In this document: positions 4,579-62,535 of the stretch, one piece after another
Layout: every line of letters starts with the position of its first letter
How positions within the stretch are numbered: position 1 is the first letter of the stretch
NCBI GenBank assembly: GCA_973895155.1
Contig: OZ316892.1
Coordinates: forward strand, 15,678,861-15,742,860
Direction: 5' to 3'
Source: Marsupella aquatica
Taxonomy: Eukaryota > Plantae > Marchantiophyta
Length of the DNA: 64,000 nucleotides
Program-made: the position numbers and the translations under genes
Notes under the pieces: model-generated
What the model saw: the letters and a program-made list of their open reading frames with translations, nothing else
Told to the model about the DNA's origin: nothing
The model's database searches: none

Positions 4579-5632
4579 AGGTTGGAGGAAAAAACATTCT
4601 CTTCCTCATTCTTCATGTCTACTCTCATATCTTGTGGCTCCTAGAGCCCGTTCAAGAGTTTCTCCACTTGTGGTGTCGTGTCAGTGTAGCATCTCATTGA
4701 GTGTTTGTCTCATGTTTTGTATATGCTTTCTAGTCTAAGCCGACGGTTTCTTACTGTAAGTAATATCATAGTTTTGTGTTTGTGATTTGATGACTTGGGC
4801 AACAATGGGCACTGAGAGTGTTTGTTGTGTTGGTTGGGGTGAAAGATTGAATCATTGTCAACAATTGCATGATAAACTGTTTCACTGGTTGCTTTCCAAT
4901 TGACTTTTGTGCTTGGAAAAGATGATGGGTTCCTGATTGAAACTTTAGCTAAAGTATCAAATGTGTCATTGTGTGTTTTGGATGTATTGTTGAGTGTACA
5001 GTCTAGCAATTTCTCATGCGCATCAATGGGCATTGCATCTTGGCAAATTTTTCATAGTGTTTTGTCATTTGAGTGCAAAGCAATGTCGTTCTTTGATATA
5101 TTTGGTCATAGACTTAAGCTCTTTGCTATATTGCGTTAGTGTGTAAATCACTTGCGAGCTCTGTCAAAGTTAGTTTCATTTGGGGCTTTTAACAATGTTA
5201 GTAAAAAGGAGAAAGTAGATAGGAAAAACTCATATTGATAGCGAGACAGAGATATTGCTAGCGAAGCAAAACCTCACATTTAACTTCACTATTTGGGAGA
5301 AAAACACTAATATCAATAATTTCAATCCATCGTGAGAGTTGCTAGCAAACCTCGCCAGCACAAATTGTTTCTTCATATCCAAAACCCTATGAACCAAAAT
5401 AGTACCAATAGTATTTTATTGAGATGACTTCAGATGATACATAACTAATTTTCCATTCTCAAATACATAAAAAGTACCACTTCTTTCTAAAGTGATATTT
5501 ATCCACAAGGATGAGGAAATATGAAGAAGATTTGGACAAAATCAATAGTCATCTAATCCTGACTGAACATCAACAGGACTATCGGAACCTGAATTCTCTG
5601 TGCTTTCCTCGCTAGTAGATACTTCACTACTC

Positions 5633-8600
5633 TCAGATCTCGATGTTGACTCGATCAGCCTCCTCATCTACAAATCTTGAGGCACGCACAGCCTCATTAT
5701 CAATCAGAGGATGCCTAAAAAACTTCCTATCAGATCCCCTCAACAGTCGTCGCCCCTTCATTTCCCAAGTCACTATGGGACTCTTGTCGACATCCTTCAT
5801 TCCTTTTTGTGTATACTCAGAGAGGTCCCAAGGCTTTTCAGGAGTATCCAGAAACGCCTCCTTAATTTTGCGCCGTAGTTGAAATTGTTCCTCCTGTTTC
5901 CATTCCAAACTCCCTTCTCTGTGGAAATGAAGCAAGACTGAACTTAGATGTATGAATTTTTATTTTGCAAAGAGAGTCAAAAAGGAATTAAAGGTCAAGA
6001 TTTAGGGAAGAAGCTTACGATCATTACTAAGAATCTTCCTTTGAAGGTGATGGAGTCTTGAGATCATCATCACCAAGAATCGCATACGGGTCCTCCTCTT
6101 CATCACCCAAGTCAACCACAGACTTTTTCCCTTTATCCAAAAAGTCTGAAACCGTTTCCACTTGAACTTTCCTCCCATGGACTGCTCGCAAAGCATCCGC
6201 AGCTGATTCCCCAAAAGCCGGACGATCCTCTAGCCCAATGACATGTCTCCCGGAGTAATCCCCGACAAAATAACTCCAACCTTCACCCACAGTCCAATAA
6301 AAAACTACATCCCCCGGATTTGTCAACAATTCAATGACAGTCTACATGAAACCTATAGAAACACGAGTCGACCCCGCGAAACCCATATCCAACAATCCAC
6401 TCTCTTTGGGAATAGAGAGGCTAATCAAAGATGACACATAGGGATCCTTCAAAGAAGAGAGTGCCTGAAACTTCTTATCCTTTGGAACTATCCCGTCCAA
6501 AGACGTCTTACAAAAGACATCGAGAACAAGATTGAAAACCTGGAGGGAAAACAGAACAACGATTTAGAAAATGAACCCAAATCTTGAAGAACTTTTTCTA
6601 GAAGGTGATTGCTAACGAGGGTCGCTATCAAAATAAAAGTGAACTTACATTAAAGTCAATGTTCTCTTTCCATAAAGGAGCCGGAAGCAGAATTGTGTAC
6701 GACTGTGCATGCTTGAAAAAACCACGAGCTTGAGCAACACTATATACGGCTAAGGTGTGATTAAAATCATCACTATGAAGAATAGCAAGGAATCCATTAT
6801 CAGCAAGATACTGTTTGGAGATATTGAAAAAATGTGCGAGGAGGGATTTGTCCCAAACGTTCCACTCTGGAACCGTTTTGTTAGTAATGAGGGGACGGAG
6901 TCCTATAGGAAGATAGACAAAACCTAAATCAAAACCTATTCCCGAAAGGGACTTTTTGTCCAAAACTATCGGAGATTCCCTAAGGCCTCTCGACAGGAGG
7001 CTCTTCATCAAAATATCACACTCTCAAACCCATGATGGTTTCTTCCTTTGGTTGACAATTGAGTTGGCAGAGTCAAGCAAACTTGACTTGAGAAAAATAT
7101 GTCTATTTTCCCCTGCAATAAACTCTATTCCTTTCCTCTCCAAACCAGAGTTTAATCTTGAATCAAATTCGGCCTCCTCATCCAAGTCAACAAAATTGCG
7201 TTTCTTCTTTGTTTTCTTGGAGCTCCCCAAATCTGCCACCTTCTTTGACTTTTTCTTCTTACTAGTTTCCTCAGGATATGCTTCCTCATTCGCGTCTGGA
7301 CTGGCTTCCTCTCCCGGTTGGTTGTGTGAACTCAATGAGCGCCTCTTTTCTGAAAAAGCACTGGGAGGTCAGAATGTAAACTTCAGGAATACACGATCAA
7401 AATATAACTTATTTTGATAGTGAGGTTCGCTAGCAATACTTACTTGTTCTGAGAGACTGTTGGGAAACAGAAACCTTTTGAGAATCTGCCTTTTCAGGGG
7501 CCTCGACTTTCACTCTTGACTTTCGAGTGCGGTCGACATTCACCCCTTGCCTCAAACATACTTCCTCCATCATGGCACAAGCCATTTCTTCCCTCTCCAC
7601 TGGACCAAATTTGATCTCAGAGAAAATATACTTGGGCTCCTCGCCCTTCACAATCTTGGTGTACACCGATCTTTCCGTTTGGTCAAAAGCAGTTGACCAT
7701 TGATCACTATCGAGATACCAGGGACAATTAAAAACTTCCCACGCAATAAGGTCTCTTTTGGGGTGAGAAGCATCCGCAGGATACATTGAAAACTGAGGAT
7801 ACGTAACATTCCCATCTGCATCTCGCCCAATGCTTGCCCATCCAGCAAAACAAAGGGGGTAACACCAAAAATACGAATCACTACTAATTTCCCGATCTAC
7901 AAAGAACTGATAAACATATCGCTCAGCCCTTCGACGAATTACATCAACATCAAATTTGTCACCAGACTTGGTTATCCAAATTGCTCGGAAAAACTTGGAT
8001 CTCACACGAAATGCATAATCCTTGAAATCATTGAGTATATGCTCCTTCAAAGATTCAAGATCTTTTTGAGGTGCAGTCTAAACGATCTTGAGGAGCACTT
8101 AATCCAATCTCATCCAAATAGGCTATCAGCAAATGGTTAGAAATGGATTCAACCGATGACCACATGGACCATGTGTGGCACCATTGCTTGGTCTCATTCT
8201 CGGAAAATCCCGCTCGATGAAACCATTGCTTCCTCAATTCTGGCTTACACTGTGCCTCAATCAATTGGCATCAAAGAAGTGGATCTAGAGTTGAGACAGC
8301 AGTGTACATTCAAACCCGATCCAATCCACAACCCAATGTTTGACGCCCTTCTCGCTTCTCCCTTTCACAGTACTCATACAACTCTGAGCATTTGGCAAGA
8401 AAACCCTTGTATTATGGATTCAAAATAGTTGCTAATTTACTGTTGCGGACAAACCATTCTTTTAGTTGCAAGGCAAACATCTCGTCATGAAGCTTCTTCC
8501 TCTCAACATCAGACCACGGCACATTCATTTGAATGGCTCTCTCTTCACAAACCCGCAAATCTTCTAGACCCGCAGCGATGTTTGCAGAGCACAAAATGTA

Positions 8601-9588
8601 TGTGAGTGCATCCAAACTCATTTTTTTTAGTACCACGCCTTATTCTTCACATTTGCCATCCTAGTTTCAAAGATCTTGTAGCTAGCAGGATCGATGATCT
8701 TCTCATAGTAAGACAGATCATATTGGAGGATTTTCTTCACCCGGTCTGCATCCAAAATCCAAGAATTCTCCACAACACACTGCCCAAGCCTGGACCCGCA
8801 AAGGAAAAGGATATCAATATATTAAGCAATCACTTAGGGAACCTAAACCACTTGCACAAAAGTGAAACAAAGCTATAAAACTTACTTGTTGAGCTCATGC
8901 ATCGCCGACTCAATCTCAATGAACGAATCACATTTCCCCTTCAAAATGCGATATATCACCCGAGGATGATACTTTTTGTCATCAGGGAACTGCTTAGCAA
9001 CTATCATCCACGAATATAGACGATGGTTCCCATCAAAAACCAAAAACATCTTGTCTTTCAAGCACAAGAATTCTGGATTTTTGTCACATTTGGCTTCAAA
9101 CGCGACATTTTGCTAAACCCAAACATCGTCCCAAGTTGCTCGAATATCTTCGGTGACCAGAATCTCAGCACCTTCCGCATCACAGACGGAAACATAAACT
9201 TGGCCAACTTGTCAACGTATCCATCCGTCTTGAACTTGGAGACAAGATTGTCAATAGCTCTTGATTGCACCTGGAGCGACCTCACCAAGTCCATGTTCAT
9301 GACTTAACAAAGTGGAACCCTAGGAGGTTCTTGCGTGTCCCCCCTTTCGTTCAACCCAAACAAAAGAGAGTGACGAGCAAGCACCTTGGAGAACGCGTCC
9401 GGAATTTTGCTGCCTCCCATCAGAACACCGTGTGTCTTGGGACATGACTGCTCTTCTTGGTGTTTTTAGGCCTATGAAAAGAATTTGCCTCTCTGCTGTC
9501 GACCGAGTCACTTGCCTGCTTGAGTTTGTAGTCTGTAGAAGGAGGCGGAGAAAGAAGTTTGGGAGCGCGGTGAAGAAGAATGATCCAT
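5633..9588 (-). pseudogene. MULE-1 accessory gene: ParB/Srx-like domain plus beta-class N4C/N6A methyltransferase-like domain, multi-exon, disrupted
   Basis: VRSLQ..IDNL..KF...GY and VFDGNHRL (9020-9034) match the ParB N-terminal signature. TNPGDVVFYWTVGEGWSYFVGDYSGRHVIGLE matches the SAM-binding region. GT-AG introns at about 8790-8885, 7351-7475 and 6541-6648. Collinear with 47341-51506. Confidence 0.75.
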
Positions 9589-12500
9589 TGGTTCACCACT
9601 AGGCTTGATACCCCTACAAAATTTTGCACGACTACTCCAAAGAGTGACCGCCATTAGGTACGGATGACACTCCACATACAAAGACATCGTACTAGCCTCC
9701 GCACCTCGACTGACCAAGCCGTGCGAAGTACAATGGAACGTTTGTAATACCGTCATCCATTTCTAAACGGGATATAATACTATCATCCGTATCGAAAGCA
9801 ACCGGATTTTGGAACGTGTCATACGGTAATAGGAACAACATACAATGGTAATTAGTTGTACCAACGGATTAATTAATGACAATGTCTACTTAATTACAGA
9901 TGGTTTAACGGAACCTATCCTAAATGCACAAATGTTTCATGACAAATTCGGAATATTTTAGAACACATAAGGCGAACATTTGACAATTTAAGTTACCGTT
10001 AAACGGTAACTTTTGGTAGCGACCCTCGCTATCAAAACTATTCCATATTTAATTATATCAATGAGATGAAGCCAACAACATGGTTAAATTTAGGTCAAAT
10101 GACCTCCAGAACTGGATGTTGGAAACTCTAATTTTTGATAGCAAAGGTCGCTATCAAAAGACGTTATCACTTTCTCTAAATTTGTAGGATATTCAGTGAT
10201 ATGAGGTTCAATATGCATATTTTTAAGAATAGTTAATGGTAGCGATGATTGCTAGCAAAAGTTGTCATTCTTTATTACCGTTGTATACCCGTTGGAAGAA
10301 TCTATCCGTTATTGTACGTGTAAATTGATGACCGAGAATCCGATGGATATGTACGATTGCTCGGCTGGTCTTTGGGGTCATCGGTCGGGTTATGGTTTGT
10401 TGGTCGGCCGTCTCCAAAGGTTCCTGGCGTTTTCGCCTTTCTTACGTTCTCCATGGAGGGTAGGTCCACACATTGAGGAGTAAACTATTTGAGATGTCTA
10501 TTCCCTGATTGGTGATTCAATCAGTGATTCAATCGATGATTCACTCACTCTCGGTCTATTCCAGGCGCTCGCTCGCCCTCGGTGATTCTCATCTCTCGCT
10601 CTTGAGAATTCAATCACTGCCTCTCTTGGTGATATAGGCGCTCGCTCTTGGTGATACCAGACGCCTGCTATCGGTGATTCTCTCGGATCTCTATGATATC
10701 TCTTACTACCAGATGCGTGCTGCCGGTGATTCTCTTGGATCTCTATGATATCTCTTTGCTCATGGACGGTATGCAGAGGATGCAGCCCGATAATGGGAAG
10801 CGTCCCATTGTAGAGGAAGAGGAGACCACGGAGCAGGAGTCTGAGACGTATGTTTTTGCCACTTCGGACATCCAAAATAGGAATAGCCTTCCACCAAATG
10901 AGAGAATGAGTCCAGGGGAGCGGAACATTCCATGGCTCAGGGATGAGCCCGCTCTTCCGTTTGAAGATCGGTTCTTCTTCCATGTTCCGTCCGATCCTGC
11001 CACAATTTGGCCCCGTCATCTAGAGCTTTGAACGCACGAGGTGTTGGGATCTCCTGATTTCCAGGATTTGAACTTTGCAAGCGGAAGCAGCCAAAGGCCT
11101 GTCTATAGAGCCCCAAATTGAGCATTTAGTTAGAGGAGGGAGCATGGTTTCACACAAGACATATACCGTCGAGTAGCTGGTGTCCCAGACGAAGAGATGT
11201 CTTCTAATTTGGCAAAGTCCCATCCCGATCCTGACCAAAAGGAGTAGGATCAATACTGGCAGATTCTTCATCTCTAGTGAGGCATAATTTAGGTTAAGAT
11301 ACTGTGACAATTTGCTAGCATCCAGTGTATGTTTTTTCCACGGAATATATAAAGAGTTTTAAATTAACTTGTCTTGGTGTATCAATTGGACATCCTAACG
11401 GATACAAAACAAATGACAAAATATTTAATGCCACAGTTGTTACCGTTTCAACATCTGGTTTGACATTGGAGCTTGAAAACTGGTTTTGTGTACTCTCTGG
11501 TTACAAATATTGACCCATCTCCGGAGAGTGTAGAAGCAGACATTGATGTTTATGAAATCAAAACTGAGTCTCCAAATAAAGTTTCTCTGATTTATCGAGT
11601 GAGTGCGTGTGACATGATATTGAGGGATAAAGGCTCCAATGAGATATCTCGCTTTGTCCGTAAGTTCTTGGAGTCTAGAGAGGATGTCAAACATGTTCAA
11701 TGTCTTCCCAAAGATTACAATGGGGACTCAATTTTTGAGCTTCCCCCAGTTGATTCATCCCCTAAAAGAGGATCTGGGCTCAGATACATGGATCGAGAGA
11801 ATGATTGCTATTGTTGGACTAGAATTATTCCAACTTATGCAAATGTCTTTCCAAAAGATTTGTATCAGTTCGCAAAAGTCCGATGCTTTGGGTCCATTGA
11901 ATGTCAAAATGGGAAGTGTGCATTCTTAGATAATGGGCAAGGGAAGGAATAGAGTGTCCTGGGCTGGAAGGGCAAAAGGAGACCAAGTCCACAAGACTAG
12001 TGAAGCAGTTTCTCCTGGAGGAATAGTATGTTTTCATTGTGACCAACCGCCTATATGTGTGGAGACGTGTCCCGCCTGAATGTTTTACATGTACCCACTT
12101 TCCTCGGTGGATAAGGAAAATGTGAGATTCATGTCGAGGCTTGCAATGCATGTCGGATACCACGTCCACCCACCAAATAGTTTTGTTTCGAGGGAGGCCA
12201 TGATTACTGCAGAGTCGGTCATCCGAGACCATCATTTAGTGAACCCCCTGGCCACACCAGCTCAACTAAAAATTGATGCAATAGAGGCATTGATGTCACA
12301 CTTGGCTCCGGAGAGTGCCGCTGGGATTTCTGTCCAGGACATTTAGGATATTTGGAGCTCATTGAGTGCTCTTGCGTCCAAAGAGAAGTTCCAAGCCATC
12401 TTGCGGAACTTCAAAATGGAGAATCCCTTGAAAAGGGAGTTTGACTCGATTCGGGACATGCAAAGGAACATTCATTTTCCTTACATCCAGAGATTTCTAT

Positions 12501-13437
12501 TTCCCGGTCAAGGCTCTATTACTGATCGAGATCATGTTTTCAAGATGAGCGTCAAAGGTCCGGGTTCTGGATTGGATATTCTTCAAAGAATGAGAAAAGG
12601 GGGTTCTCAGGAAGGATCATGGGTTAGTTTTGATGTTATGCATCGGATTACTACTGGCTGGCTGACATTTAGTGCGCACGTTTATGATCATAATATCCGT
12701 GCCCTGTGCACAATATTTACTTGTGAGCTAAAGTTTGAATGTTGTGAATCATTGTCTACGGCTTGGAGGTTGATGGTAAGTGTCGCATCCAAAAATGGTT
12801 TGCACGACATTACCATCCATGGTTTCATGGTAGATAATGCCACCGTAGGGTGGAATGCGGTTCAGAATATATTCTCCCAGGGTCTTCCTAATCCAGAAAA
12901 AGAAAGGTCTGATGCTTTTCATTTCTTCCAATCACTCCGGAGACATACCCGTGAAGGTATTTTGGAAAAAAATCACGATGAGCATTATGCTTTATGGGAC
13001 CATTTGAGGAACGCCTCCACATACGTTGAAGCTACAGAATTTCTTCAGAGATCAAGGAGTGGTGGCAATCCAGGAATTGTATTCCAGGGAAACTTCGCTA
13101 TCTGCAAGGATGGATTTCCTGGTGGGTCGTTTGATGGAGACAGTGGGGGAACTATATCAGGCTGGTATGGTCTTAATTCCAACTCAATTTTTCATGGTCG
13201 TCTCATCAAAATATTGCAAGCGATCTTCGCTAACATCGGTGGAATCCGTTACTTACGTTGATTTTGCTTATGTGTTTTGTTTCAGTCGGCGGACGCTCTG
13301 GAATCTGTCCACGCTTCCATGCATGCTTCCCAACCCAAAAAGAAAGTGACTCTAGTGGAGGCTTGCAAAGTTGACTCCAATCGTGCTGCCTTCCAAGTTG
13401 CTTGCTACATCGGATTTGAGTCCGGTGTGAGTAGAGG

Positions 13438-16400
13438 TGTGATGCCTAGACAGGAATCACTCGGCCGGTTAAGTGGGTAAAGCAGGAAGGCACCCTAGGA
13501 ACACCTTAGTATAGTGACAAAACAAGGAAAATATAAACAATTAGGGGCAACCATGGAACCCGGGCCGAGGCCGGAGGTAAGGCTGAGGGTGAAAACCCGA
13601 TTAGGGTTAGGGCGCGTTAAGCGTCGGCGGCTAGGAAGGATCAACGGGAAGAAGGACCGGCAAAGGAGAGGGGTAAGGAGCGCTTGCAGGAGATGGTGGC
13701 TCATTTGCGAGCACGAACTAGGCAGACGACTACGGGAGGCCAACTACTGTCAGCTGCTTAGGCAAGCACTCGGGGAGAGAGTAGATACCGACGATCAACC
13801 TAAGGAGGGTATGAGCAACGTCAATCAAGCGGCACATTTCTGGGGATGCCTGTTCGAACGGGCAACTGAGTACATCAAGACTTACGAGGACGAGGAATCA
13901 GAAAGGGCAGCTCGAGAACGGCAGGAGCTCGCTCGATTGTGGGAGCTGCAGAAGACGGCTTTCTTAGGAGGCGAACTCATCAAGGACGAGTTCCTGTGGA
14001 CGCCTACTTCCAATCAACTCGACGATCTTCTGTTTTGCAAAGACAGCGTCGTCGGCATCCGAGAGGCCATCAAGAACTGCAACGACATACACTGGGAATT
14101 AAAGGGTAGCACGGAAAGGTGGACCCAAGCAATGGTGCTAGGAGAAACCTCCACGGCAGCAGAGATGAAGAGGAAGGGAGCCGTCAACGATGAAGCCACC
14201 CCGGCAAAAAGAACGAGGTCGGCGGCACCAAAGAAGCCAGCCGAGCAGCAGAGCAGGAGGCAGGGAGAAGCCGAAGAGGAGGAGGTTGATCCCATCAAGG
14301 CCATTCCAACCAGGGATGACACCTGGAAGGGCTGGGCGGCAACCCTACCGGTGGAGGTGCAACTACATTTTGCACGGGAGGAGGATGCATGCTTTACGGC
14401 CATGCAGACCAAGAAGTACCAAGGCTTCATGGCCGGATCCGGCTTGGAGGCCTTTGTAAGATTACCATGGCTGAAGCCGGAGGTACCGGAGTCAGACCTA
14501 TTAGAATTCGTGGGGTCATGGGAACCCGAGACCAATTGCACGAGGATATATGGGAAGGATTTCTATCTTACTCCCAAGGTAATTGCCAAAGTGTTTGGCT
14601 TGCCGATAGGCAATAAGACCAAAGTTGATACCAGGAAGACCTTGCCTGACAAGGAGTTCCGGTCGTTCCCCGGGCCATCAACGAAGAATGGCTTCTTCCG
14701 GAACACCTGCACCAACCCGCACATAGGAGAGATGATCGACTTCTTGCGGGTGACCATGCATTGTAACTTGCCGAGGGCAGAGATCGGCAAGGCACAGGTC
14801 TATCTGGCAGAAAGGCCAGACCCAAGCCGGGACTACAACGGGTACCTCCTCAACCAATTGAAGAAGATCTTAAAGGAGGAGCAGCAGGTAATCGGCATGG
14901 GGAGCGTGTCGCGGCTTGGCTATCACATGCCGCTGTTGTGCCGGTATGCCAGAGGTCAGACTTTTGCCCCGGTACTTCCCCTGCAGGTAAGAGCACCCGA
15001 GGAAGCTCCAACGCCAAGGCCGTTGGCTGAGAAGCCTCAACCACCTGTTAGTCCTACGATCGAGCAGGTGTTTAGGCCCAGGAAGGAGGACTTGCCGATG
15101 CAGCAACCAGGCATGCAGAGTCTGCTGAAACTACTGGAGAAAGAAAAGAAATCGGCATCGGCAACAACAACGGCAACGGCAACAATGCAGGACACTACTA
15201 CAGAGGTAGGCCTACACCGGCTCACAAGAGAAAACCCCTTTGCTGGAGACAAGGAGAGAATCAGGCCGGAATCCAAGCCAGGTGTTCGAATGTACGTGGG
15301 AACCTCAAGCTCCGAATCTGAGGCAGAATTGCCTGAAGCTCCTACCGACGAAGAGGAGAGGGAGAAGCCGGACGTCCAAGAGGTAGAGGAGGCAGTGGAG
15401 GACTGCAGCCATGATAATTCCGGCTATGGGTCGGACCATCACGTTCCAGGAGTAAGGACCTGTGGCCGGTTTGTCCCCACACTTCCAAGGGTAGTGCGAG
15501 GGGACCCCAACCAGCAGAGTAGCCCTGAGTCTCCCCCACCAGATGTTGCTCCCCCGAGCTTCGATGGCATAAAACAGACAGTGCAGGAATTTCAGGAGCG
15601 AATCAAGCAGGAGGAGGAGGCCGCCCTGGCTAAGGAAAAGGATTTACCAGGAGGAGATTGGCCGGAGGACATCAGGCGGCTAGCCGAAAAAGGAAGCAAA
15701 CCTCTAGCCACGATTGAAGAGATCCGCAGGACGGCTTGGGAGCAGAGGCCACGATGGGCGATGCCGATCACTTCTACTTACTCCACCTACGCTAAGAATA
15801 GAGCCATGGAGTATGGTGAGATGTGTGGGGAACTTGCGCTCGGCATCTTTGGAGAGGAGTTGGAGGTAGGACCCTTTTTCCATAGGGAGCAGGAGGAGGC
15901 CAAAAACGAGCTGGAGGGGGCACGTAAGGACCTGGATGAAACCCAAGAGGAGTTGGAGGAAATCACGAGGAAGATGGAGAACCTACAGCGGCGGGCCGAC
16001 AACCAAACAGAGCGGCTGAAGAAACAAGCCGCAGTATTTAAATGCTTAGCTGCAGCAGGTCCATCTCCCGTTGGGACAAACCAGTTACCAGGGGTGGTAA
16101 TTGTCGAAGGACAAGCCGCGCCACCTGCACCAGTGCCGGAAGTAAGTGGGAAGGGGAAGGGACCAGCTGCCGAGCCACCAACGAAGAAGAAGCGGAAACC
16201 TTCAGGGTCAAGGAGTAATACGACTTCACAGGCCGTGGTGATCAAGGAGGTAGACCCAGCACCGACCCCAGACAGGGTCACGGCTAAGGATCCAACTACC
16301 CTAGGGGAAGGGGAGGCCAAAGCCGAGGGAGTGGCTGAAGCCGAAGCCGTGGGAGTGGCTGAGGCCGAAGCCGTGGGTATTGCCGAGGCCGGTGTCGAGG

Positions 16401-44596: not shown

Positions 44597-44862
44597 GGGA
44601 CCCGGAGGATGGTGGCGGCAGTGGAGGTGAGAACATTCCCAATACTGGAGAGAGGATAGTTCCGATGGACGGTATTGACGAAACAGCTAATGTACATTCA
44701 GCTGTGGAGCGTATCCCGGATACACAGATGGAGAAGGTGGAAGAAGTGACTCCTGTGAGGATGGTTGTTGACCGAATTGGAGGGGTGACAAAGGGCTTCT
44801 CCCCGGGGGATCAGGCACGGATCTAGTCCTGTGGCAAAGGTGGAGGCTGAGCAGGGAAGAAT

Positions 44863-46724: not shown

Positions 46725-46789
46725 GAGGCTTTTCACGATGACAGCAAACAGCAATCACATGGAGGCTTTTCACGATGACAGCAAACAGC
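46716..46789 (+). repeat. 37-bp tandem duplication covering the TSD and left TIR tip
   Basis: AATCACATGGAGGCTTTTCACGATGACAGCAAACAGC twice. Confidence 0.9.
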
Positions 46790-50300: not shown

Positions 50301-51506
50301 TGCAGCAATGGAGTGATCTTTGTTACTTTGATAGCCTAGTCTTTTGTCGCTTCCTTCATCATAGCTTCATGCCTCTTCTGCGTCTCCTCTTCGGACCACG
50401 GAGTCCCCTGGGCGGCTGCAAAATCCATGTCCACTTTGAACTGGTTTGTGTAAGATTTAATCTTGTTCTCACACAAAATGTAGATGAGCACGTCTTGTGG
50501 CATCTTGTGTGTATACCAAGAACCCTTTCGAGTCTTCTTTCGAATGGCTTCAAACTTAGCATAACTCGTAGCATCAATTAGGGGTTTGTAGTGCTCTAGG
50601 TCACGGGATAAAAGACGAGAGATCAAGAATCCAAGACGGCTCGACCACAACTTGTCCCAACCTACGTCAAAATTTAAATGTAAATTAGCAGAGCCGGGCG
50701 CTAGTAAAACACCAAAGATAATATCACATCCAAAATCCATCTTGAACTAGTACGTCATATTAAATGAGGTTGTCCTGAGGAATGGCTTACTGGTTGACAA
50801 CGTGCATGGCAGCCTCGAGCTCCACGAGGGAACCTTTATCTCCATTGAAAACAATGCAAGTCACACGAGGGTGGTACTTAATGTTGTCCGGATGCTCTAC
50901 TGTCACAATCGACCACGAATACAAATGGTGATTTCCATCAAAGACACAAAACATCTTGTCCTTCAAAACTCTGAAATCAGGATCAGCGTCACACTCTTCT
51001 TCGAACTTGTCATTCTCGGCAACCCAGATTGGGTCCCAAGAGGCTCTAATCTCATTAGTGCAAATCTGTGGAACCCCATCCGCATTCGTTGGCTGTACGT
51101 AAAATGGCATGCCCATGCGCGAATTGTATCCAAAAATCCGGAATGACTCCTTCAATTTGTCGATGGAGGCGCTCTGCTTTTGCAATGTCCGCACCACTTC
51201 CATATGAATCAATCAACATAGAGGAATTTGTGGAGGCTCCTTCTCCAATCCTTTGAAATCTTTCCCAAAGGACAAGACATGCTTGGAAATGTAATCGTCC
51301 ATTGAAAGTCCAGCAACACCGAAATCAACTCGAGCAACTTCCTCAGTCGTGTCCATTCTCCCCCTTCTTGATCGCGCAGTCGGAAGAGTTGAGCCAATGT
51401 CTGAATGTGAATAAGACGCAGCGGACCGAGTCACGCGATGGGTGTACACAGAACCTGAAAAAGAGGACTGTGAGGACTCAGAATGACCGGCATGACTATC
51501 TCCCAT
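47341..51506 (-). pseudogene. MULE-2 accessory gene: ParB/Srx-like plus beta-class methyltransferase-like, multi-exon, disrupted
   Basis: VRTLQ..IDKLKESF...GY..PFYV and VFDGNHH (50925-50939); GVDAGFIYLP (48741-48778); LADDGLLAILH; RLPVGFMQSVLELITLPGDIVMDWTVGAGSTFVAGDHCGRFVVGIE (~48005-48140). Introns near 50662-50790, 49207-49339 and 48317-48490. Confidence 0.78.
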
Positions 51507-53717
51507 CCTCGTATTACCCCACTAAGAGATGGCGATGGCGTTGAGCAGAATGTTGGACAGTATCGTACAACTCTCCCAGAGCCCCTGATCCAGTACGGAG
51601 CAACAGGCTCAGGTATAGAATGTCACGCTTGAACAGGCTGCTCCAGGAGAATCACGTCTCTCCCACGAGCGCCAAGCCTCCTCAGAAGGTTAAGACATGG
51701 AGTATCGAGCACATTAGAGTGTTGCTCAACGGTAACACCAACAGATCTCAACACTTGGAAGATTACCGTTGGACCAGAAACCGTCTTATGTGACCAGCAA
51801 TCCTCAAGGTTACGCGTGACTAGCAATCCTCAGTGTTATCGTTAAAATATGACCGTTGATCGTTTTGGCCTTATTGATAGCGCCAAGCGCTAGCAAAAAC
51901 AACTCCATTTTACCTGATTTAAACTACTAATTTCAATAGCGCCGAGCGCTAACAAATCTTCCACGTATATATATTTTACACAATTCAAATGGAATTCATG
52001 GATAGATGGACAAAATGGACATTATTAGGATCATTTTATCCGTAAGCGTTATTAGCGCTCGGCGCTATCATAAATTGCATCCAAATCAATGTTACTCATC
52101 ACGAGAGAGTAATACAAACTCTTACATATCCACAAATATTTAAGAATCCATCTGGTATTAGAAGCATAAGTTTGAGCATTCCAATGCTAGCGCCGAGCGC
52201 TAATATGGAACCTGTCACGGGTAATACCACTCCATCAAAAACTACAAGCATTACGAAGACTTTCAAAAGACATTTGGTGAAAAGATTTACTCACTTCCGT
52301 AAGGCAAAACATCAAAAAACACAAACTGAATAATGAAAAATGCGTAAGGGAATGGCTAATAGATCAAACTCCATTTAATGGTATGGGCTTTACTTCACAA
52401 AGTCTCAAAATATTGAGTAAAAACATGAGAGTAACCTCCCAATAGATTCCGAGACTATCGTGCTGGCAAAAGATTGACTACCATTTCTAACATCACTACA
52501 TCAACTGGTCGTGGCTGTCAACATCAAACTCCACCAAATGAGGTTGGTAATCTACTCAGGACTACTGGGTTCTCCAGGATCAGACGGTCCATGCGTTAAT
52601 CTCCAGGATCAGTTGATCAGTTAATCTTCCCACCAGCTTGGCTTGTACGCGTCCGAATCATCGTTGGAATCGCTAGAACCAACGCCCCAGCGAAACCCAC
52701 CCCAACTGCAAAAGGAGTTGTCGTTGGACCCCGACTCGTCGTGGGTCCCTGCATCATCGTCTGTATCCTCGCCTTCACTTGAAGAACTTTTTCCATGTCT
52801 AGGTGACGGGTGCGACGAAGATAAGCCCGCCTTTGACACCCGACATTTCTACGCGATGGGTGCGGATACAACTCGGGTTTTTGCAATTACTTTCCCCTTC
52901 GCCGAGATTGGGACGTTTGAATGAGAAGGAGGCTTCGTGAGAGACTTCTCCTCAGCGCCCTCTCCATCGCTGCCGCTTTGAAATGTAACCTGCGCCTTCC
53001 CCTTAGCTCGTGGTGGAGCCATGGAAACTTAAACAAACGACTCTAAATGATTGAGACTGAACGGAAGTTTCTCGTATAAAAATGGACGCGGGAGCGCAAA
53101 AAATGTTTTTGAGAACAAAGAACTTCAAATGGTGAGAGGCAGACTCGTCGGCCAGGTTTTGAGGACAGAGGTGAGAACGTTTGGATTTCCATGGACATCT
53201 CAGATGTAATGGTTTTTGATCGTGCAATTGACGTCCGAGATGCGTCAATTGTGGAAACTTTAATGCCCACGTGCGTACTTGGACCGATTCACGGATTTCC
53301 TGTCTGTTGTTAGAGGTAGAACATACGAGCTTTGATGATAGCGCCGAGCGCTATTATTATGATCTGAGTTTTCCTGTCCTCCTCGCCATGCGGTACTATA
53401 TTCGGTCGAGAGTCATGCTTCCATTGTAAAGTTGTTCCCCGTTCACAAAAGTAGCGCCCGACGCTATTAAACTCCCGACAATTAAGCTGGTTCAATACAG
53501 CCGTTGAATAACGACAAAATTCAATTGATTTACATTGTCCAAACCATTAACGTAACTTTCTTTGTAATTATTCAACGTTCGTTTATACTGTCGTTATTAA
53601 CCTCGTACATCAAACAATCCTTAAACCGATTGGGGAAGTGAGACATTGATTATTATCTTCCGCTGAAATGGGACGATCGATCGTAGTGAGACGCAAGGAC
53701 ATGCGGGATGTTGTCAC

Positions 53718-56700
53718 TGTGGTGCGTCCCATGGCTCCCTAAACCCAAGAAACCCCCCAGCTCAAGCCGATTCCCGCAGGTTTCGCGCTCGGCGAGGCCG
53801 TTTCCGCGGCTTAGCGGCATGGGACGCTGCTAACCTTCTACTACTACTATTAACATTTTACACACATATACTGGACAGATCCTTCATCGGGTCATGAGAT
53901 ACGTAGCCGGCCTAATCTAGGCCTTCCCCTGTCTTCCCCTCCGTCTTGTTAGGTATGTTTGGATTCCGCCGCCGGAATGATCCCCAATAGGCTTGGTTAA
54001 GCCGCTAAGACCTCTCTCAGCTCGACACATCCAAATCTCACTCCCCTGCTTACTTTCCTTCCTTTTGGTTGATGTGGGCACTCTTCACACAAGTTAATGC
54101 GACACACAAATAGCAAAATGACTCATTCTGACTGAGTCATACCATGCACTTGCCATACAAACAGTACATCTCATACACAAGTTCTGCGAACTAAGCTGTG
54201 AGGCCAACTCTATTCAGCTCTTAGGCATGAGGAAACATGAATATACACAAGGATCACTGTATGACTAACCGAGAGCTTCTCGTACTACTTGATCCCAGCC
54301 CGGCTGGTGCAAACTAAAAACTTGCTAAAGAAGAGGCCCTGAGCTCCCCGCTGCCCAGGTACTTATCCTGGTAGTGGATCCGCCATTCTTTGCATCGTAA
54401 GCCTAATCTACTTAACAGTAATCTACTTTCCGGAATCTACCTATGTACAGCAAGGCAGGAGCACAAGTGTTGCTCCTACCAGTGGGACCGCAATCCCACT
54501 AAGCTAAGTGTCAGGGCCGCTCCTGGTCCTGATCCTAATCCTAAACTTGGAGATCAGCGCGCGCCCTGCCCACTCACGCCTCCTCCCTCCACGTCCGCCC
54601 TCCCTAAAAGGAACGGCGCCCTTGCACCGTCACGACACCGGTGGTGGATCCTTAATGGACGCCCCCAACGCTTCCTCCTCAGCCACTGCCGTAGGCTCAT
54701 TCTCTGACAGATTACCTGCCCTTGACTGAGTCAACTCTCCATCGGCCTGACTGGGTCCACCATCGGCGTCGGCATCGGCTCGGGAATCGGTTACGGCCTC
54801 AGCCTCGGCTACGGTCTCCCCGGCCTGCTCAAGAGGCGGATCTGGAATACCGGCCTCATTACTGAGTAGTTCGGCTTGGGCCGCACCACCCCCACCTGTG
54901 ATGATAGCGGGATCTATTGCCGTATTCATGCCGGAGGATGGTGCTGGTTCTACCTCCTTGGTCACCACGGCTTGTGGAGTCGGATTACTCCTTGACCCTG
55001 AAGGTTTCCGCTTTTTCTTCTTTTCTGGTTCGGCAGCTGGTCCCTTCCCCTTCCCACTTACTTCCGGCACTGGTGCAGTTGGCGCGGCTTTTTCGGCCAG
55101 TACCACTCCTGGTAACTTGGTTGCCCCAATTGGAGTTGGGCCTGATGAAGACAAGCACTTAAATACTGCGGCTTGTTTCTTCAGCCGCTCCGTTTGGTTG
55201 TCGGCCCGCCGCTGGAGGTTCTCCATCTTCCTCGTGATTTCCTCCAACTCCTCCTGGGTCTCATCCAGGTCCTTGTGTGCCTCCTCTAGTTCCTTCTGGG
55301 CTTCCTCCCGTTCTTGTTTCAAGGTAGTCCTCTCCTCCTGGGTTGCTCTTAGCTCCTTGTCGAGCTCTGCAATGATGACAGACTCCATCTAGTTCATCTT
55401 GGCGTAAGTCTGTTCGAGCATCTCGTCCTTCTCCCTTAGGTCGGCCTTGAAGCTGGCCGTCAGGGACGCAAGCTCCTGCTGCAGCGCCATAATCCCTTGA
55501 TAGGATTTTCCTAACTCGGCCTCCTTCTGCTCAAGGGCTCCGCGGATTTTCTCGAGCTCCCCCTTCAACGCCCATTCCTTTCTTTGGGTCTCCGCCATGG
55601 CCCGGCTGTTGGCTGTTATGTGGGCCTCCTCTGTATTCTTCAGCTCTTGCTTCCACTTCTCCCTCTCTTTGATCGTGTCGGCCAACTCTCCCTGCGTCTG
55701 AGTCAGTTTATCCTTGATATTCTGATTATCAGCCTGCGCGGTGTCCAACTGCCCCAGCATGATGTTCAGCTCATGTCGTTTAATCCGCAGTTCATCTTGG
55801 GCTTTCTTGGCCGCCCTTAGATCTTCAATCTCGGCTTCCATCCTCCTAAGCCGCCGAATGACCTCGTCCTTCTTGCTTCTCTCTAAAGCCACCGCTTCTT
55901 CTAATTGGTGCTTCTCCAACTGCTCCCTATGGAAAAAGGGTCCTACCTCCAACTCCTCTCCAAAGATGCCGAGCGCAAGTTCCCCACACATCTCACCATA
56001 CTCCATGGCTCTATTCTTAGCGTAGGTGGAGTAAGTAGAAGTGATCGGCATCGCCCATCGCGGCCTCTGCTCCCAAGCCGTCTTGCGGATCTCTTCAATC
56101 GTGGCTAGAGGTTTGCTTCCTTTTTTGGCTAGCCGCCTGATGTCCTTCGGCCAATCTCCTCCTGGTAAATCCTTTTCCCTAGCAAGGGCTGCCTCCTCTT
56201 CCTGCTTGATTCGCTCCTGAAATTCCTGCACCGTCTGTTTTATGCCGTCGAAGCTCGGGGGAGCAACATCTGGTGGGGGAGACTCAGGGCTACTCTACTG
56301 GTTGGGGTCCCCTCGCACTACCCTTGGAAGTGTGGGGACAAACCGGCCACAGGTCCTTACTCCTGGGACGTGATGGTCCGACCCATAGCCGGAATTATCA
56401 TGGCTGCAGTCCTCCACTGCCTCCTCTACTTCTTGGCCGTCCGGCTTCTCCCTCTCCTCTTCGTCGGTAGGAGCTTCAGGCAATTCTGCCTCAGATTCGG
56501 AGCTTGAGATTCCCACATACATTCGAACACCTAGCTTGGATTCAGGCCTGATTCTCTCCTTGTCTCCAGCAAAGGGGTTTTCTCTTGTGAGCCGGTGTAG
56601 GCCTACCTCTGTAGTAGTGTCCTGCATTGTTGCTGTTGCCGTTGTTGTTGCCGATGCCGATTTCTTTTCTTTCTCCAGTAGTTTCAGCAGACACTGCATG

Positions 56701-58378
56701 CCTGGTTGCTGCATCGGCAAGTCCTCCTTCCTGGGCCTAAACACCTGCTCGATCGTAGGGCTAACAGGTGGTTGAGGCTTCTCAGCCAACGGCCTCGGCG
56801 TTGGAGCTTCCTTGGGTGCCCTTACCTGTAGGGGAAGTACCGGGGCAAAAGTCTGACCTCTGGCATACCGGCACAACAGCGGCATGTGATAGCCAAGCCG
56901 CGACACGCTCCCCATGCCGATTACCTGCTGCTCCTCCTTTAAGATCTTCTTCAATTGGTTGAGAAGGTACCCGTTGTAGTCCCGGCTTGGGTCTGGCCTT
57001 TCTGCCAGATAGACCTGTGCCTTGCCGATCTCTGCCCTTGGCAAGTTACAATGCATGGTCACCCGCAAGAAGTCGATCATCTCTCCTATGTGCGGGTTGG
57101 TGCAGGTGTTCCGGAAGAAGCCATTCTTCGTTGATGGCCCGGGGAACGACCGGAACTCCTTGTCAGGCAAAGTCTTCCTGGTATCAACTTTGGTCTTATT
57201 GCCTATCGGCAAGCCAAACACTTTGGCAATTACCTTGGGAGTAAGATAGAAATCCTTCCCATATATCCTCGTGCAATTGGTCTCGGGTTCCCATGACCCC
57301 ACGAATTCTAATAGGTCTGACTCCGGTACCTCCGGCTTCAGCCATGGTAATCTTACAAAGGCCTCTAAGCCGGATCCGGCCATGAAGCCTTGGTACTTCT
57401 TGGTCTGCATGGCCGTGAAGCATGCATCCTCCTCCCGTGCAAAATGTAGTTGCACCTCCACCGGTAGGGTTGCCGCCCAGCCCTTCCAGGTGTCATCCCT
57501 GGTTGGAATGGCCTTGATGGGATTGACCTCCTCCTCTTCGGCTTCTCCCTGCCTCCTGCTCTGCTGCTCGGTTGGCTTCTTTGGTGCCGCCGACCTCGTT
57601 CTTTTTGCCGGGGTGGCTTCATCGTTGACGGCTCCCTTCCTCTTCATCTCTACTGCCGTGGAGGTTTCTCCTAGCACCGTTGCCTGGGTCCACCTTTCCG
57701 TGCTACCCTTTAATTCCCAGTGTATGTCGTTGCAGTTCTTGATGGCCTCTCGGATGCCGACGACACTGTCTTTGCAAAATAGAAGATCGTCGAGTTGATT
57801 GGAAGTAGGCGTCCACAGGAACTCGTCCTTGATGAGTTCGCCTCCTAAGAAATCCGTCTTCTGCAGCTCCCACAATCGAGCGAGCTCCTGCCGTTCTCGA
57901 GCTGCCCTTTCTGATTCCTCGTCCTCGTAAGTCTTGATGTACTCAGTTGCCCATTCGAATAGGCATCCCCAGAAATGTGTCGCTTGATTGACGTTGCTCA
58001 TACCCTCCTTAGGTCGATCGTCGGTATCTACTCTCTCCCCGAGTGCTTTGCTTAAGCAGCTGACAGTAGTTGGCCTCCCGTAGTCGTCTGCCTAGTTCGT
58101 GCTCGCAAATGAGCCACCATCTCCTGCAAGCGCTCCTTACCCCTCTCCTCTGCCGGTCCTTCTTCCCGTTGATCCTTCCTAGCCGCCGACGCTTAACGTG
58201 CCCTAACCCTAATCGAGTTTTCACCCTCAGCGTCCTTACCTCCGGCCTCGGCCCGGGTTCCATGGTTGCCCCTAATGGTTTATATTTTCCTTGTTTTGTC
58301 CCTATACTAAGGTGTTCCTAGGGTGCCTTCCTGCTTTACCCACTTAACTGGCCGAGTGATTCCTGTCTAGGCATCACA
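53718..58378 (-). mobile_element. Giant solo LTR, copy C4 (4661 bp)
   Basis: Reverse complement of a C3-like LTR; TSD GTCAC (53713-53717, 58379-58383). Confidence 0.93.
54630..58263 (-). pseudogene. LTR-encoded protein, long variant, disrupted
   Basis: Frameshift near 58048 and TAG stops at 56295 and 55389 relative to the 1206-aa copy. Confidence 0.85.
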
Positions 58379-60117
58379 GTCACGGTTATCGTATCCCCTG
58401 AATCTCAGTCAAGGAGAGTTTTGGATGAATACTTGGGGTTGAGATTTGATGTTTCCAAAGAGTGTATTCTCTCTGTGTCCCTCCTCCCTAAGGATTCAAA
58501 GGCAAATACCATCTTCTATGATGTCGTCGATGGACTCAGTGGACGATGTATCCAGAGAAAGTATACGAGGTCTTTGTTTTGGAAGATTCTGAAGCATCGG
58601 AAGATCTATGTCCTATTACCGGTGGTGTTGATGTTGTCAATCTGTCTGACACTTTGGAAGACGACGGGAAGAATTCGCCCCTTTCCTTTGATGTCCCGAA
58701 AAGGATCTCAATGGATCCCTTGGTGGTGAAGATGGAGGTTCAAGATGTCCCAATTGTATATCGACAAAGTGCGATGGATACTATCCTAAAATCGAAGGGA
58801 CATAGCGAGTTATCTCGTTTCATCAGGGAGAAGGATTTCACGCATCAGATAGTTCCTAGCCTCCCGATGACATACAATGGGAATGTTGTGTTTGAGTTGC
58901 CTCCAGTCGATTGCGTGAATTCGAAAGGGGAACGACTGAAGGACATGGACCGCGGGAAGGATTGCTATTACTGGACGCGCATTGTCAAGACATCTTTGAA
59001 TGTTTTACCAAAGAAGATGTGGGATTTTGGAAAGGTTCAGTGTACCGGTTCTCTTGAATGTCGGAACAATTCTTGCCAATTCTGGAGAGACAAAAAGACT
59101 AGGAACAACCAAGTCTGGGCGAGATCACCAAAACTCTCAGGAACCTTTCGAGTTGGAGAACTCATACCTCAAGGTGGTATTGTCTGTCACCACTGCTCTG
59201 AACCTCCGATGTGTACAAGATCGTGTCCGGCCATGATGTTCTATATGTATCCTTCGGCCAAAGTGGATTCAACTCATTTGGCGTATATGTCCCGGCTGGC
59301 TGTGCACATGGGATTTCACAACCATCCCAATCGTTGAGGGTGGTCAAGAGAGGCTGAAAAGCTTGCTAAGACTCACCTTGCAAAGGAGTTCTAGGCTAAT
59401 CCACAAGCTACGCCCGCTGGGATAAAGAATGCGGCTACAGACTCTCTAACCAATGCCCTCTGTGAGGAATCCGTGGAGGAAATGTCTTCGGAAGAGGAGA
59501 AGGAGATCTGGGAGTCCCTCATGGTTGTTGCTACCCCACAAAAGTTTGCTTCTGTTCTGCGAAGTGTGAGACAAGATCAGAAAGGCAAAGGTGAGCTTGA
59601 ATATTTGGTGCGGATGCAAAAGTGTGTGAGACTTCCCTTTCTTCATAGGTATTTGCTTCCAGGCCAAGGATGTCGAGACGAAAGTGCTCACATCTTCAAG
59701 ATGATTGTGAAAGGCGAAGGATCTGGGATCGACTTTCTCCAGAAAATGCAGACCGGTGGTTCATTAGAAGGTCATGGGTGAGTTTCAACGTCATGCATAG
59801 CATTACATTGGACTGGCTAACTTTTAGTGTTCATGTATATGATCATCACTATCGGGCGCTTTGTACAATTTTCACTTATGAATTAAAGGCTGAAGACCTT
59901 AGAGAGAGCGTGGCGATTGATGATAGAAGTTGCGAGTGAAAATGGCCTGGAGAACATTCAAATTCGAGGATTCATGGCGGACAATGCCCAGGCTGGATGG
60001 AATGTGGTGCGAAATGTTTTCTTCAATGGGGTACCTGATCCTGACCGAGAGCGATCAGATGCGTTTCATTTTTATCAGTCATTTCGTTGGCATTCATGCG
60101 AAGGTGTTCCAGAAGGA

Positions 60118-60145
60118 AAACCCGAAACCCTAAACCCTAAACCCT
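60118..60145 (-). repeat. Interstitial plant telomeric repeat, about four TTTAGGG units
   Basis: Plus strand AAACCCG AAACCCT AAACCCT AAACCCT. Confidence 0.8.
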
Positions 60146-62535
60146 GTAACGCAAAAACATTTTTGGACGCATATCGTATGTCAAGAGAGATCGACGATTG
60201 GTGGAGATCTGGAAATTGCCATCAGGGGAAGCTTCAAATGTTGCAAGGATGACTCTCATGGTGGGTCGTCCGTTGGAGACAATGGGGAAACTTCATTAGG
60301 CTGGTAAGGCTTTTCTTAGATTCATGATAGTCCATTACCATTGATTTGTAATAGCGCCCGACGCTAATATGGAACAATTCCTTGTTACAGTATAGTAGCG
60401 CCAAGCGCTAGTATGAACAAGCACACTTTTGCAACTACAAACATGGTAGTGATGCAAGAGATTTGATAGCGCCAGGCGCTACTTATATATTAGAGAGTCC
60501 ATATTGCATAAATACAAACTACACTTGTCGCAAATTACTGTAGTTACTAAATTTCGTTTCCGATGACAGAGCAAGAGTGCTGAGGAGGCAGGTATGATTC
60601 CGAATTGTACTGGTTTGGAATCGGTCCATGCAGGCATGAAGGCGTGGCAAATGAAGAAGCGGGTTGGTCTCATGGAGGGGTGCAAAACTGACCAAAACCG
60701 AGTCGTATGTTAGATAGCAGCATATACTACATACGGTCAAGGATTACATCGGGGAAGTGGACCCACTATCTTTGAGTTGGCTTTCAGATCTGCCGACATG
60801 ACAGGGTCTCCACGTCTATTTGAAGAAGCGACCAATCTCCTTCTTTCCAACGCAGCTGAATTTGATTTGGAAAGAACTGTTCCATTGAATGGAGACGTGA
60901 TAACTCGATCGGTGAAGCGAAAAGGTAATGCAAGTGGGAATGTCTCGGCACAAGACTCTCACAGGCATGATACTATCCTTGTGACTTCACCAAATACAAG
61001 GGGTTTGAAGAGAAGAAACCTCCATTCCACAGACTTCGAGAAGATGTCTTCCACACCTTCTGCTGGTGGAAGTGGCGTTGTTAATTTGTCTCAAAGTGAG
61101 AGTGAAGATTCTGAGGAGGTCATCGTCCTTGAGACACCCTCACGTTAGACGACAAGATCTTCTGTTCCTCCCATAGGACATCAAGCTGAGGCCGCACCTG
61201 AGGAATCTCTTCTCCCAATGGAAACTGACATAGCTCCAAGTCTCTGGCAGCTCCGACAAACTGCAAAAAGTGGTGCTGGTCCAGCTTGTAATGGGACCCT
61301 CGGTTGGAGAGGAAGCCGCAATGAATGTCAAAATTGAGTAAAGAAGGTTGGGTTTCCAAATCCAGAAGGAGTTGTCGCAATATCTGTAAGAGGATGTAGA
61401 CTTTTTAGAGGAGAACCTCATCCGGACCAGATATGGTTTTGCCCAAACAACAAATGTCACAAAAGTCGGCCAAGAAGAGGTGTTTCAAACATTCCCAATA
61501 TACCATCCGTTCTTCCCATTGCGAGAGGGACCAATCTCCAGGAGGGCGAGATCCAATTCTTGAGAGAACAAGGTCTACTTGGTACAGGAGAGGTAAGGGA
61601 AGGTCAGGAGCCATCCCCGTATGAGTTACGCATCGATGTGAATTTGTTCCAAGAGAGGATCAATTTAGCGGACCCAATTTTCAAATGTGGCTCCAGGAAT
61701 GGAAGGAAGTGCTTGCAGAGAGTGAATCTAACTCAAACACATTACAAGAAGATTGAAGCATCCAAAACAGAAGTAATGAGGCTCGTATGCGAGAGAGATG
61801 TCATGAGTGGGAATGCGTGGGGCAAGTAGTATTGTATCAGAACACATGAACATGAGAGGAATGCTGCCTCTTATTGGGTGCAAATTTGTTGTTTCCCTTG
61901 CTGTTCATGTGAGGATTTCTATCGGAGGCACATTTATAGGAAACCTTACATGCCTTGCAAACATCTATATTGGGTATTCAGGACTATGTTAAAGTTGAGT
62001 CTTCACGATTCGACACTATCTAGTCAACCAGTTCTGACATTGGGCGAAGTCCGTTACCTGCTTGATTGACAAAATGGAACGGACACGTAGTCAATTCGGT
62101 GCCGTTCAACAGCTTTAAGTGGCATTTGTCTTTTCTAACGAGCAGAAGATGTACCCGTTTCTTATCTAGAAAAATGTGTGGTCTGTTGCTAGCACTTGGT
62201 GCTAGCCAAAATTTGAAACAGATAGCAAATATATTGACTGTTAAATAAAGCGTGTCTTCTTATAATGACCTTTATATTGCCCGTTTATTATCATTGAATG
62301 GTGGGCCCCATTATGTTAGCATTTCAGAGAGCGCTTATATGGTTGTTATTTTTTAACATTGAGCCATTTTTTTGAACTTTGAATAACCTATAAAACTTGT
62401 ACAAGTAAATAGTTTCTCGTATGAGTAAACAGATTTTCTGCTATGAGTAATTGAAAGCCTCATATGAGTAAATTTTTGCTCGTAACAGCAAATCTATTTA
62501 CTATTTGCTGTCACGGTGGTTATACCCATCACATG

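Follow-up and report, generated by a model that had tools for sequence, protein, structure and literature searches.

A predicted ParB-like and methylase-like accessory protein, and the palindromes it probably reads, in two likely Mutator-like elements of the liverwort Marsupella aquatica

What does a transposon gain from carrying, opposite its transposase, a gene that joins a ParB-like domain to a DNA methylase-like domain? The question is raised by a stretch of 64,000 nucleotides from the liverwort Marsupella aquatica (assembly GCA_973895155.1, contig OZ316892.1, positions 15,678,861 to 15,742,860 of the forward strand), here called the window, in which two diverged and likely Mutator-like elements, E1 and E2, each carry such a gene. 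Three things can be read directly from the window: the layout of the genes, a degenerate catalytic motif in the methylase part, and palindromes that are specific to each element and lie in its non-coding DNA. We lean towards the reading that the accessory protein binds the dispersed palindromes of its own element and marks the copies of its family as self, the methylase being likely inactive. The elements and their genes are as follows.

5182..39394, unstranded: E1, likely Mutator-like, set by a 9-bp target-site duplication (TSD), by ends that are alike, and by the junctions and 5-bp TSDs of nested inserts
46725..62527, unstranded: E2, likely Mutator-like, inserted in a long interspersed nuclear element (LINE), set by an 8-bp TSD, with the LINE frame resuming beyond it
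5633..9588, minus strand: E1 accessory gene, broken, with ParB-like, helical and likely pseudo-methylase parts; exons 9588-8886, 8789-7444, 7360-6649, 6539-6028 and about 5916-5633
47341..51506, minus strand: E2 accessory gene, broken; exons 51506-50791, 50661-49340, 49206-48491, 48314-47746 and about 47632-47341
10761..38945 (start approximate), plus strand: E1 transposase, broken, split by nested inserts
53700..62067 (start approximate), plus strand: E2 transposase, broken, split by a 4.7-kb insert at 53718-58379

In both elements the accessory gene stands head-to-head with the transposase. It has five exons, with introns at matching places, and comes to about 1,185 codons in E1 and 1,205 in E2, as expected from the initial annotation of this DNA, which had placed a divergent gene of about 1100-1200 amino acids in each element. 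The two proteins are far apart, with aligned blocks mostly 30-50% identical (except for two short blocks of 14 and 22 residues), and a blastn comparison of E1 with E2 finds only four short matches, all in coding DNA. Both genes are collinear along their length with a Riccia sorocarpa protein, KAL3677308.1 (P0155, 1,207 amino acids).

Both copies have decayed. Counted roughly at minimum cost, with one E2 splice boundary off by one base, the breaks come to about 9 stops and 5 frameshifts in the E1 gene and about 3 of each in the E2 gene; in addition, intron 3 of the E2 gene no longer ends in AG. The E2 end, gene and spacer are represented in many distinct contigs. In a comparison with E2-family contigs from three runs (40 of about 900 differences listed), two of the E2 stops are sense codons in other copies, which also have one more base at a frameshift and an intact AG at the end of intron 3; those breaks therefore belong to this E2 copy. 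A stop falls at the same conserved Arg codon of an IPLCR motif in exon 1 of both genes, at about 9290 (TAA) and about 51215 (TGA), and independent CpG decay fits this coincidence, since other E2 copies have CGA there. Upstream of the E2 accessory gene, on the minus strand at 52622-53021, lies a short low-complexity frame of acidic and basic residues with one stop; it may be a third gene or an exon further upstream, and nothing in E1 evidently corresponds to it.

How widespread is the gene? A HMMER search with exon 1 finds 218 related clusters at E<=0.001; among the 20 looked up, 11 are from R. sorocarpa and 5 from Adiantum. R. sorocarpa also accounts for 27/27 matches in one homolog search and 25/27 in another, and its genome holds dozens of diverged, often fragmentary gene models. 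Algal proteins are absent from the named matches looked up. A word-based search of the E2 ParB exon against longer proteins had given 0/115 candidates before HMMER found the 218 clusters. The same layout in two diverged elements, together with those clusters, speaks for a stable accessory gene and not a one-off capture, as the initial annotation had suggested. On this evidence the accessory gene class appears to reach liverworts, in Mutator-like elements, and also ferns, as judged from homologous proteins.

In a quick tree, midpoint-rooted and made with no bootstrap, both window rows share a branch (SH-aLRT 98) with 27 of the 29 Riccia rows, and the 4 fern rows stand outside it; because it holds no prokaryotic rows, this tree says nothing about a donor. 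Searches for relatives of the ParB part with one short pattern gave 0/80 candidates in viral contigs, 0/41 in GTDB genomes and a best E of 0.04 against phages, with no relative among the latter, all of which is weak evidence of absence; three ParB-part queries had no match in PHROG. Phage matches to the methylase half, which bear on a conjectural uptake of a fusion already formed in phages, are only 26-35% identical among the 20 matches listed. The 4 loci recovered by scanning metagenomes are 1.2-1.8 kb long and could not accommodate a transposase.

The two ends of the methylase question are its fold and its catalytic residues, read in these domains.

6180..7023, minus strand: E1 beta-class methyltransferase-like domain, with YLPI at the motif IV position and YWTVGEG at the motif I position
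47946..48898, minus strand: E2 beta-class methyltransferase-like domain, found with Pfam PF01555, with YLPT at the motif IV position and DWTVGAG at the motif I position

The C-terminus is predicted to adopt a beta-class amino-methyltransferase fold. E2 exon 4 matches PF01555 at E 1.3e-7. For fold comparisons of this half we used a model of the full-length Riccia homolog P0178 (predicted local distance difference test score, pLDDT, 72). The model has a complete beta-class fold in the permuted order, catalytic half and then S-adenosylmethionine-binding half. It aligns to M.BceJIV with Z 17.5 (root-mean-square deviation, rmsd, 3.2 over 215 aligned residues) and to 11 beta-class enzymes with Z 15-17.5 over about 200-230 residues; Foldseek gives E 3.8e-8.

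Is the fold likely to be an enzyme? The canonical motif IV, (D/N/S)PP(Y/F/W), occurs in 0 of the 40 rows (of 91 aligned) that cover the position. Asp stands there in 36 rows, mostly as D-[LMI]-P-[TS]-G, and Tyr in 4, as Y-L-P-[TI], these being both window genes and two further proteins; one fern row, DVPF, has the sole aromatic fourth residue. In contigs of three runs the Tyr codon changes only synonymously (at a 3% threshold), which makes the Tyr a family trait and not a product of decay. Motif I reads DWTVGAG in E2, YWTVGEG in E1 and mostly DFAGGWG in Riccia: the glycine loop is kept, the canonical FxGxG is not, and the motif departs from the DPFxGxG of solved enzymes. Because motif IV is degenerate across the family, we consider the domain likely to be a pseudo-enzyme, and a non-canonical motif IV that has become fixed would fit one kept for binding. 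Of the initial annotation's beta-class N4/N6 methyltransferase, the fold is supported and an active enzyme is not; the PGD.V.DWTVG segment that it had placed in both genes is PGDIVMDWTVGAGS in E2, but PGDVVFYWTVGEGW in E1.

The other end of the protein is predicted to have a ParB/Srx fold, located as follows.

8886..9400, minus strand: E1 ParB/Srx-like domain with DGNHR, frameshifted, placed by homolog alignment
50791..51236, minus strand: E2 ParB/Srx-like domain, DGNHH in this copy, placed by AlphaFold2 model and fold searches

An AlphaFold2 model of E2 exon 1, built with 87 sequences, has pLDDT 85. When it was compared with 48,161 chains, all 12 with Z>=2 belonged to the ParB/Srx superfamily, an assignment made from titles and general knowledge of the families; they are structures of KorB, PadC, sulfiredoxin, ParB-N, SerK, SbnI, Spo0J, SspE, BrxU, Dnd or Atu1540, the best being KorB (Z 7.3, rmsd 2.6, 91 aligned). 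In a Foldseek search the ten best rows were ParB, Noc or KorB, with probability up to 0.92. The fold proposed by the initial annotation thus gains support from both comparisons; the DGNHR motif that it had read in both genes is there in E1, and E2 has DGNHH. Across 87 aligned homologs the motif is (D/E)GNHR, with D in 71 and E in 13, G in 81, N in 86, H in 80 and R in 70 (70-86 of 87 rows per position), and an upstream Arg (74/83) and a terminal Asn (65/70) are conserved as well. We take all of these to correspond to CTP-pocket residues of ParB. After the ParB-like domain, in the model of the homolog, comes an all-helical middle. One PDB sequence matched the ParB part, a match that we judged to be chance.

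What might such a protein bind? Each element has its own palindrome, found at these positions.

5343, 6613, 7418, 10017, 10139, 10240, 13218, 39126 (span 5343..39140), unstranded: E1 palindromes, TTTTG-n-TAGCGA-N3-TCGCTA-n-CAAAA
46909, 47005, 47245, 48403, 48466, 49251, 50689, 51878, 51937, 52053, 52188, 53339, 53452, 60352, 60396, 60467, 62190 (span 46909..62204), unstranded: E2 palindromes (17), TAT-n-TAGCGCC-n-GGCGCTA-n-ATA

All 17 exact occurrences of the 15-bp dyad TAGC-N7-GCTA in the window fall inside the elements' own DNA (21 kb), 14 in E2 and 3 in E1, and the other 43 kb has 0. With one mismatch allowed, E2 has 17 and E1 has 9, against 1.7 and 1.3 expected, and nested and outside DNA shows no dyad excess. 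An unbiased scan of 4,096 dyads puts TAGC-N7-GCTA at the top in both elements, with a Bonferroni P of 1.7e-20 in E2. Sites are non-coding in 17/17 cases in E2 and 7/7 in E1 (10/11 in E1 at two mismatches). The one-mismatch and non-coding counts, the scan and the placement used E1 boundaries less than 300 bases off the refined ones. When long palindromes were counted regardless of motif, the elements did not stand out from other DNA (17 in E1 vs 5.2 expected, 15 in E2 vs 5.2, 13 outside vs 6.4), so that only the specific dyad is informative.

The palindromes lie in matching compartments of E1 and E2, namely introns 2 and 3, the spacer, the transposase intron and both ends, most of them kilobases from the element ends, and both core and flanks differ between the two elements. 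At the imperfect E2 sites 47008, 48471 and 50692, other copies of the family are nearer the consensus. Among four outside loci, two have a related CTCGGCGA-N3-TCGCCGAG-like palindrome in intron 1. The initial annotation, which had guessed at self-recognition, did not have these element-specific palindromes, and the guess is strengthened by them.

The E1 spacer between the two genes holds further repeats distinct from the main motif: a perfect palindrome with 10-bp arms at 9990-10012, and a set of short TGATTCAATC-type repeats at 10513-10547.

How could these parts work together? A dimer of the accessory protein would load at the two-fold symmetric palindromes. Its nucleotide pocket may, more speculatively, let it clamp and spread along DNA as ParB does from parS, and the methylase fold would serve as a module that grips DNA or flips bases, not as an enzyme. 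If VANC is a guide, the element would most likely benefit by having its CpG-containing sites and the neighbouring promoters shielded from host silencing; alternatively, the element may be organised for transposition. We favour anti-silencing of the VANC kind; the palindromes occupy the same compartments as the motifs of VANC21, whose sites lie in introns, spacer and terminal regions (PMC5735166). The most elaborate version is that land-plant transposons run a parS/ParB-style system, with a nucleotide-gated clamp, family palindromes, spreading, and a dead methylase acting as a base-flipping shield against CG/CHG methylation. In that full form we regard it as doubtful. If true, anti-silencing would have been invented a second time, independently of VANC, across transposon superfamilies and from algae to liverworts and ferns.

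Several observations weigh against binding of the palindromes by the accessory protein, or against parts of that reading. Single ParB matches are weak (Foldseek E>=0.23, best Z under 8), and Pfam ParB had no match in the 87 family members, for which sequence profiles gave only sub-threshold DndB (5) and DUF1015 (4). The ParB-type DNA-binding helix-turn-helix (HTH) is only hinted at, by KorB over model residues 110-444 at rmsd 7.0. On the DNA side, exact matches to the E1 palindrome alone are not significant (3 observed, Bonferroni P 0.2), and the relaxed E1 pattern was set after the hits had been seen, as were the patterns for the non-coding counts. Of the four outside loci, one has a full intron 1 without the palindrome and one has only 61 bases of intron 1. 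Linkage of the accessory gene to a transposase is known only from E1 and E2 in this window. Clamping by CTP is not implied, because phage ParB partners of T-dioxygenases work without the NTP-binding residues (PMC13229309). And the reader of the palindromes could equally be the transposase or a host factor.

In that last case the accessory protein would act through protein contacts or non-specific DNA binding, for example by partnering the transposase or by targeting, a possibility that we consider unlikely on the whole. Short subterminal repeats do lie next to the ends of some Mutator-like elements (MULEs) (PMC5225508), a 2026 preprint reports that a MULE transposase activates in a sequence-specific way (10.64898/2026.08.24.746577), and the accessory protein offers no firmly recognised HTH. 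However, most palindromes lie far from the ends, in the spacer and in introns of both genes, which is not in its favour. Palindromic arrays also lie beside ParB-type genes in the unrelated red-algal Plavaka elements (bioRxiv 10.1101/2025.02.11.637652), which points to the ParB gene rather than to the class of transposase. Could the C-terminal domain instead be an active methylase with an unusual motif, writing N4-methylcytosine (4mC) or N6-methyladenine (6mA) on the element that encodes it, the role suggested for the proteins of algae? The complete fold, the Gly-containing motif I, the Asp of 36/40 rows, the fern DVPF row, and the presence of both C and A in the palindromes would allow it. We nevertheless find it improbable: a PP-aromatic motif appears in no row, Tyr replaces the catalytic Asp/Ser in both window families, and motif I is not that of solved enzymes. 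Active enzymes have SPPY, DPPY or NPPY, and changing SPPY to APPA abolishes the activity of the rotifer enzyme N4CMT (PMC8885841). Least credible, and very improbable in our judgement, is that the element has captured the gene as neutral cargo, or bears an ordinary gene of the host in the manner of a Pack-MULE. In its favour, both copies here are dead; against this stand the agreement in position, orientation and introns between two elements with such diverged proteins, the dozens of diverged gene models in R. sorocarpa, and the many distinct contigs over the E2 end, gene and spacer.

Palindrome binding by the accessory protein, the reading we prefer, has to be set beside what is already in print. 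The initial annotation knew of no description of the arrangement, but such descriptions exist. The brown alga Ectocarpus has an element, Sola1-1_Ec32, with a 1,104-amino-acid ParB and N4/N6-methyltransferase gene opposite the transposase, similar proteins being cited in green and red algae, and the protein is proposed to bind and modify its own element (PMC12477816). It resembles ours in size (about 1,100-1,200 amino acids), in having ParB-like and amino-methyltransferase domains in one gene, and in strand; the host is a Sola element in a brown alga and not a Mutator-like element in a land plant, and the likeness seen is one of architecture. A degenerate catalytic motif is not mentioned for Sola1-1 in the available text, and 'palindrom' occurs 0 times in the main text (PMC12477816). 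The red-algal Plavaka genes PAG2 and PAG3, with homologs in Chondrus Mutator and Zisupton elements (the Bostrychia preprint, bioRxiv 10.1101/2025.02.11.637652), likewise provide transposons with accessory genes for a PF01555 methylase and ParB-like domains, and inverted repeats have been proposed there as sites at which the element's own proteins bind. Theirs, however, are two genes (methylase with SET, and ParB with a 2-oxoglutarate oxygenase) and tandem arrays beside PAG3, whereas in the window one gene holds both domains and the palindromes occur singly, scattered over introns, spacer and ends.

VANC of the Arabidopsis VANDAL elements is also a MULE accessory gene with family-specific short motifs in intronic, intergenic and terminal non-coding DNA; its motifs, unlike ours, are 8-9 bases long, non-palindromic and in same-orientation tandem repeats, the available text describes no ParB or methylase domain for it, and anti-silencing, demonstrated there (PMC5735166), would apply here by analogy. 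The host proteins MpDN4MT1 (bioRxiv 10.1101/2021.02.12.428880) and rotifer N4CMT (PMC8885841) share the bacterial-type beta-class fold in a eukaryote, N4CMT structures aligning to the P0178 model with Z 15.9; unlike ours they are host genes with an intact SPPY and demonstrated activity, and 'ParB' occurs 0 times in the available text of either. The fusions of a ParB-type HTH to Dam-type methylases of chlorophytes described by Iyer et al. 2016 (PMC4738411) are of a different class. In the main text of a MULE review (PMC6446971) 'ParB' and 'methyl' each occur 0 times.

The bacterial CTPases ParB, KorB and Noc share with the window family the N-terminal fold, predicted here, the conserved pocket residues and a palindromic candidate site. 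Their pocket motif is the GxxRxxA box; the window family differs in having DGNHR, a helical insert of 30-40 residues, and no ParA partner. For green algae, Iyer et al. 2011 is reportedly the work cited. We found no description of a ParB and methylase transposon gene in land plants in the literature searched, which leaves aside Repbase and subscription papers. This locus adds a setting in land-plant Mutator-like elements, a non-catalytic motif that is fixed, and the pair of family-specific candidate binding sites.

How sure can we be that the elements are Mutator-like? That they are two separate elements, as the initial annotation had it, is borne out by each having its own terminal inverted repeats and TSD. 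E1 is flanked on left and right by a perfect 9-bp TSD, GTTTCATTT, and 27 of the 33 terminal bases match between its imperfect ends; for E2 the TSD is 8 bp, ATCACATG, and 22/33 terminal bases match. The ends of both are short and imperfect; terminal inverted repeats of MULEs are often long and are short or absent in some clades. The plus-strand genes of both, read by eye, have D..D..DAFH..E, in which DAFH takes the place of CxxH, and near the C-terminus a SWIM-like CxC..CKH. A TSD of 8-11 bp and SWIM fingers are MULE features (PMC6446971), and CxxH is common to MULE and hAT (PMC5225508). Pfam SWIM scores E 2.6 on the transposase, and comparison of the transposases with Pfam MULE, PDB and plasmid sequences gave no family match. 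Because no database confirmed the family, we call the assignment, made from TSD length, ends and motifs read by eye, likely but not proven.

E2, with about 11.1 kb of its own DNA, sits in a LINE reverse transcriptase whose reading frame runs on across the insertion. Its left end is tandemly duplicated at 46716-46798 (37 bases including the TSD, with a second start at 46762). E1 has about 10.1 kb of its own, at 5182-13434, 17465-17674 and about 37757-39394, and about 24 kb of nested retroelement DNA splits its transposase; the 210-base piece of transposase at 17465-17674 lies between inserts and has a second copy at 25938-26147, in an 8.47-kb duplication. That piece is included in a 5.1-kb direct repeat (13438-18546 and 21912-27019, 99.6% identity, 8.47 kb apart), either a recent recombination product or an assembly artefact. 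Units beginning with TG and ending with CA lie at 13435-17464, 21909-25937, 31204-35860 and 53718-58379; they are 4.0-4.7 kb long, 97-99% alike over most of their length, and have one long open reading frame each (1,014 and 1,224 amino acids intact, the two others frameshifted), for which the one scanned had no Pfam match below E 0.02. Their own 5-bp TSDs are clear in at least two (CTAGC, GTCAC), AGAGG flanks the first, and one is preceded by a Ty3/gypsy-like pol and a purine-rich tract. In appearance the units resemble giant long terminal repeats with an internal gene, present also as solo units. Short runs resembling TTTAGGG, presumably the plant telomere repeat, occur at 40173-40193 and 60118-60145, the second inside the E2 transposase where the two transposases diverge.

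Why does this matter? In algae a gene of this kind has been proposed to bind and modify its own element, a proposal given with no experimental test in the available text (PMC12477816 and the Bostrychia preprint). Because the two diverged families in the window each carry their own palindrome, a test of cognate against non-cognate binding would be direct. If the methylase of this branch is a pseudo-enzyme, as seems likely, the emphasis would move away from the writing of a mark and towards recognition and protection of the element. And if it is true that a ParB clamp works on eukaryotic chromatin, that would be relevant to transposon and chromosome biology alike.

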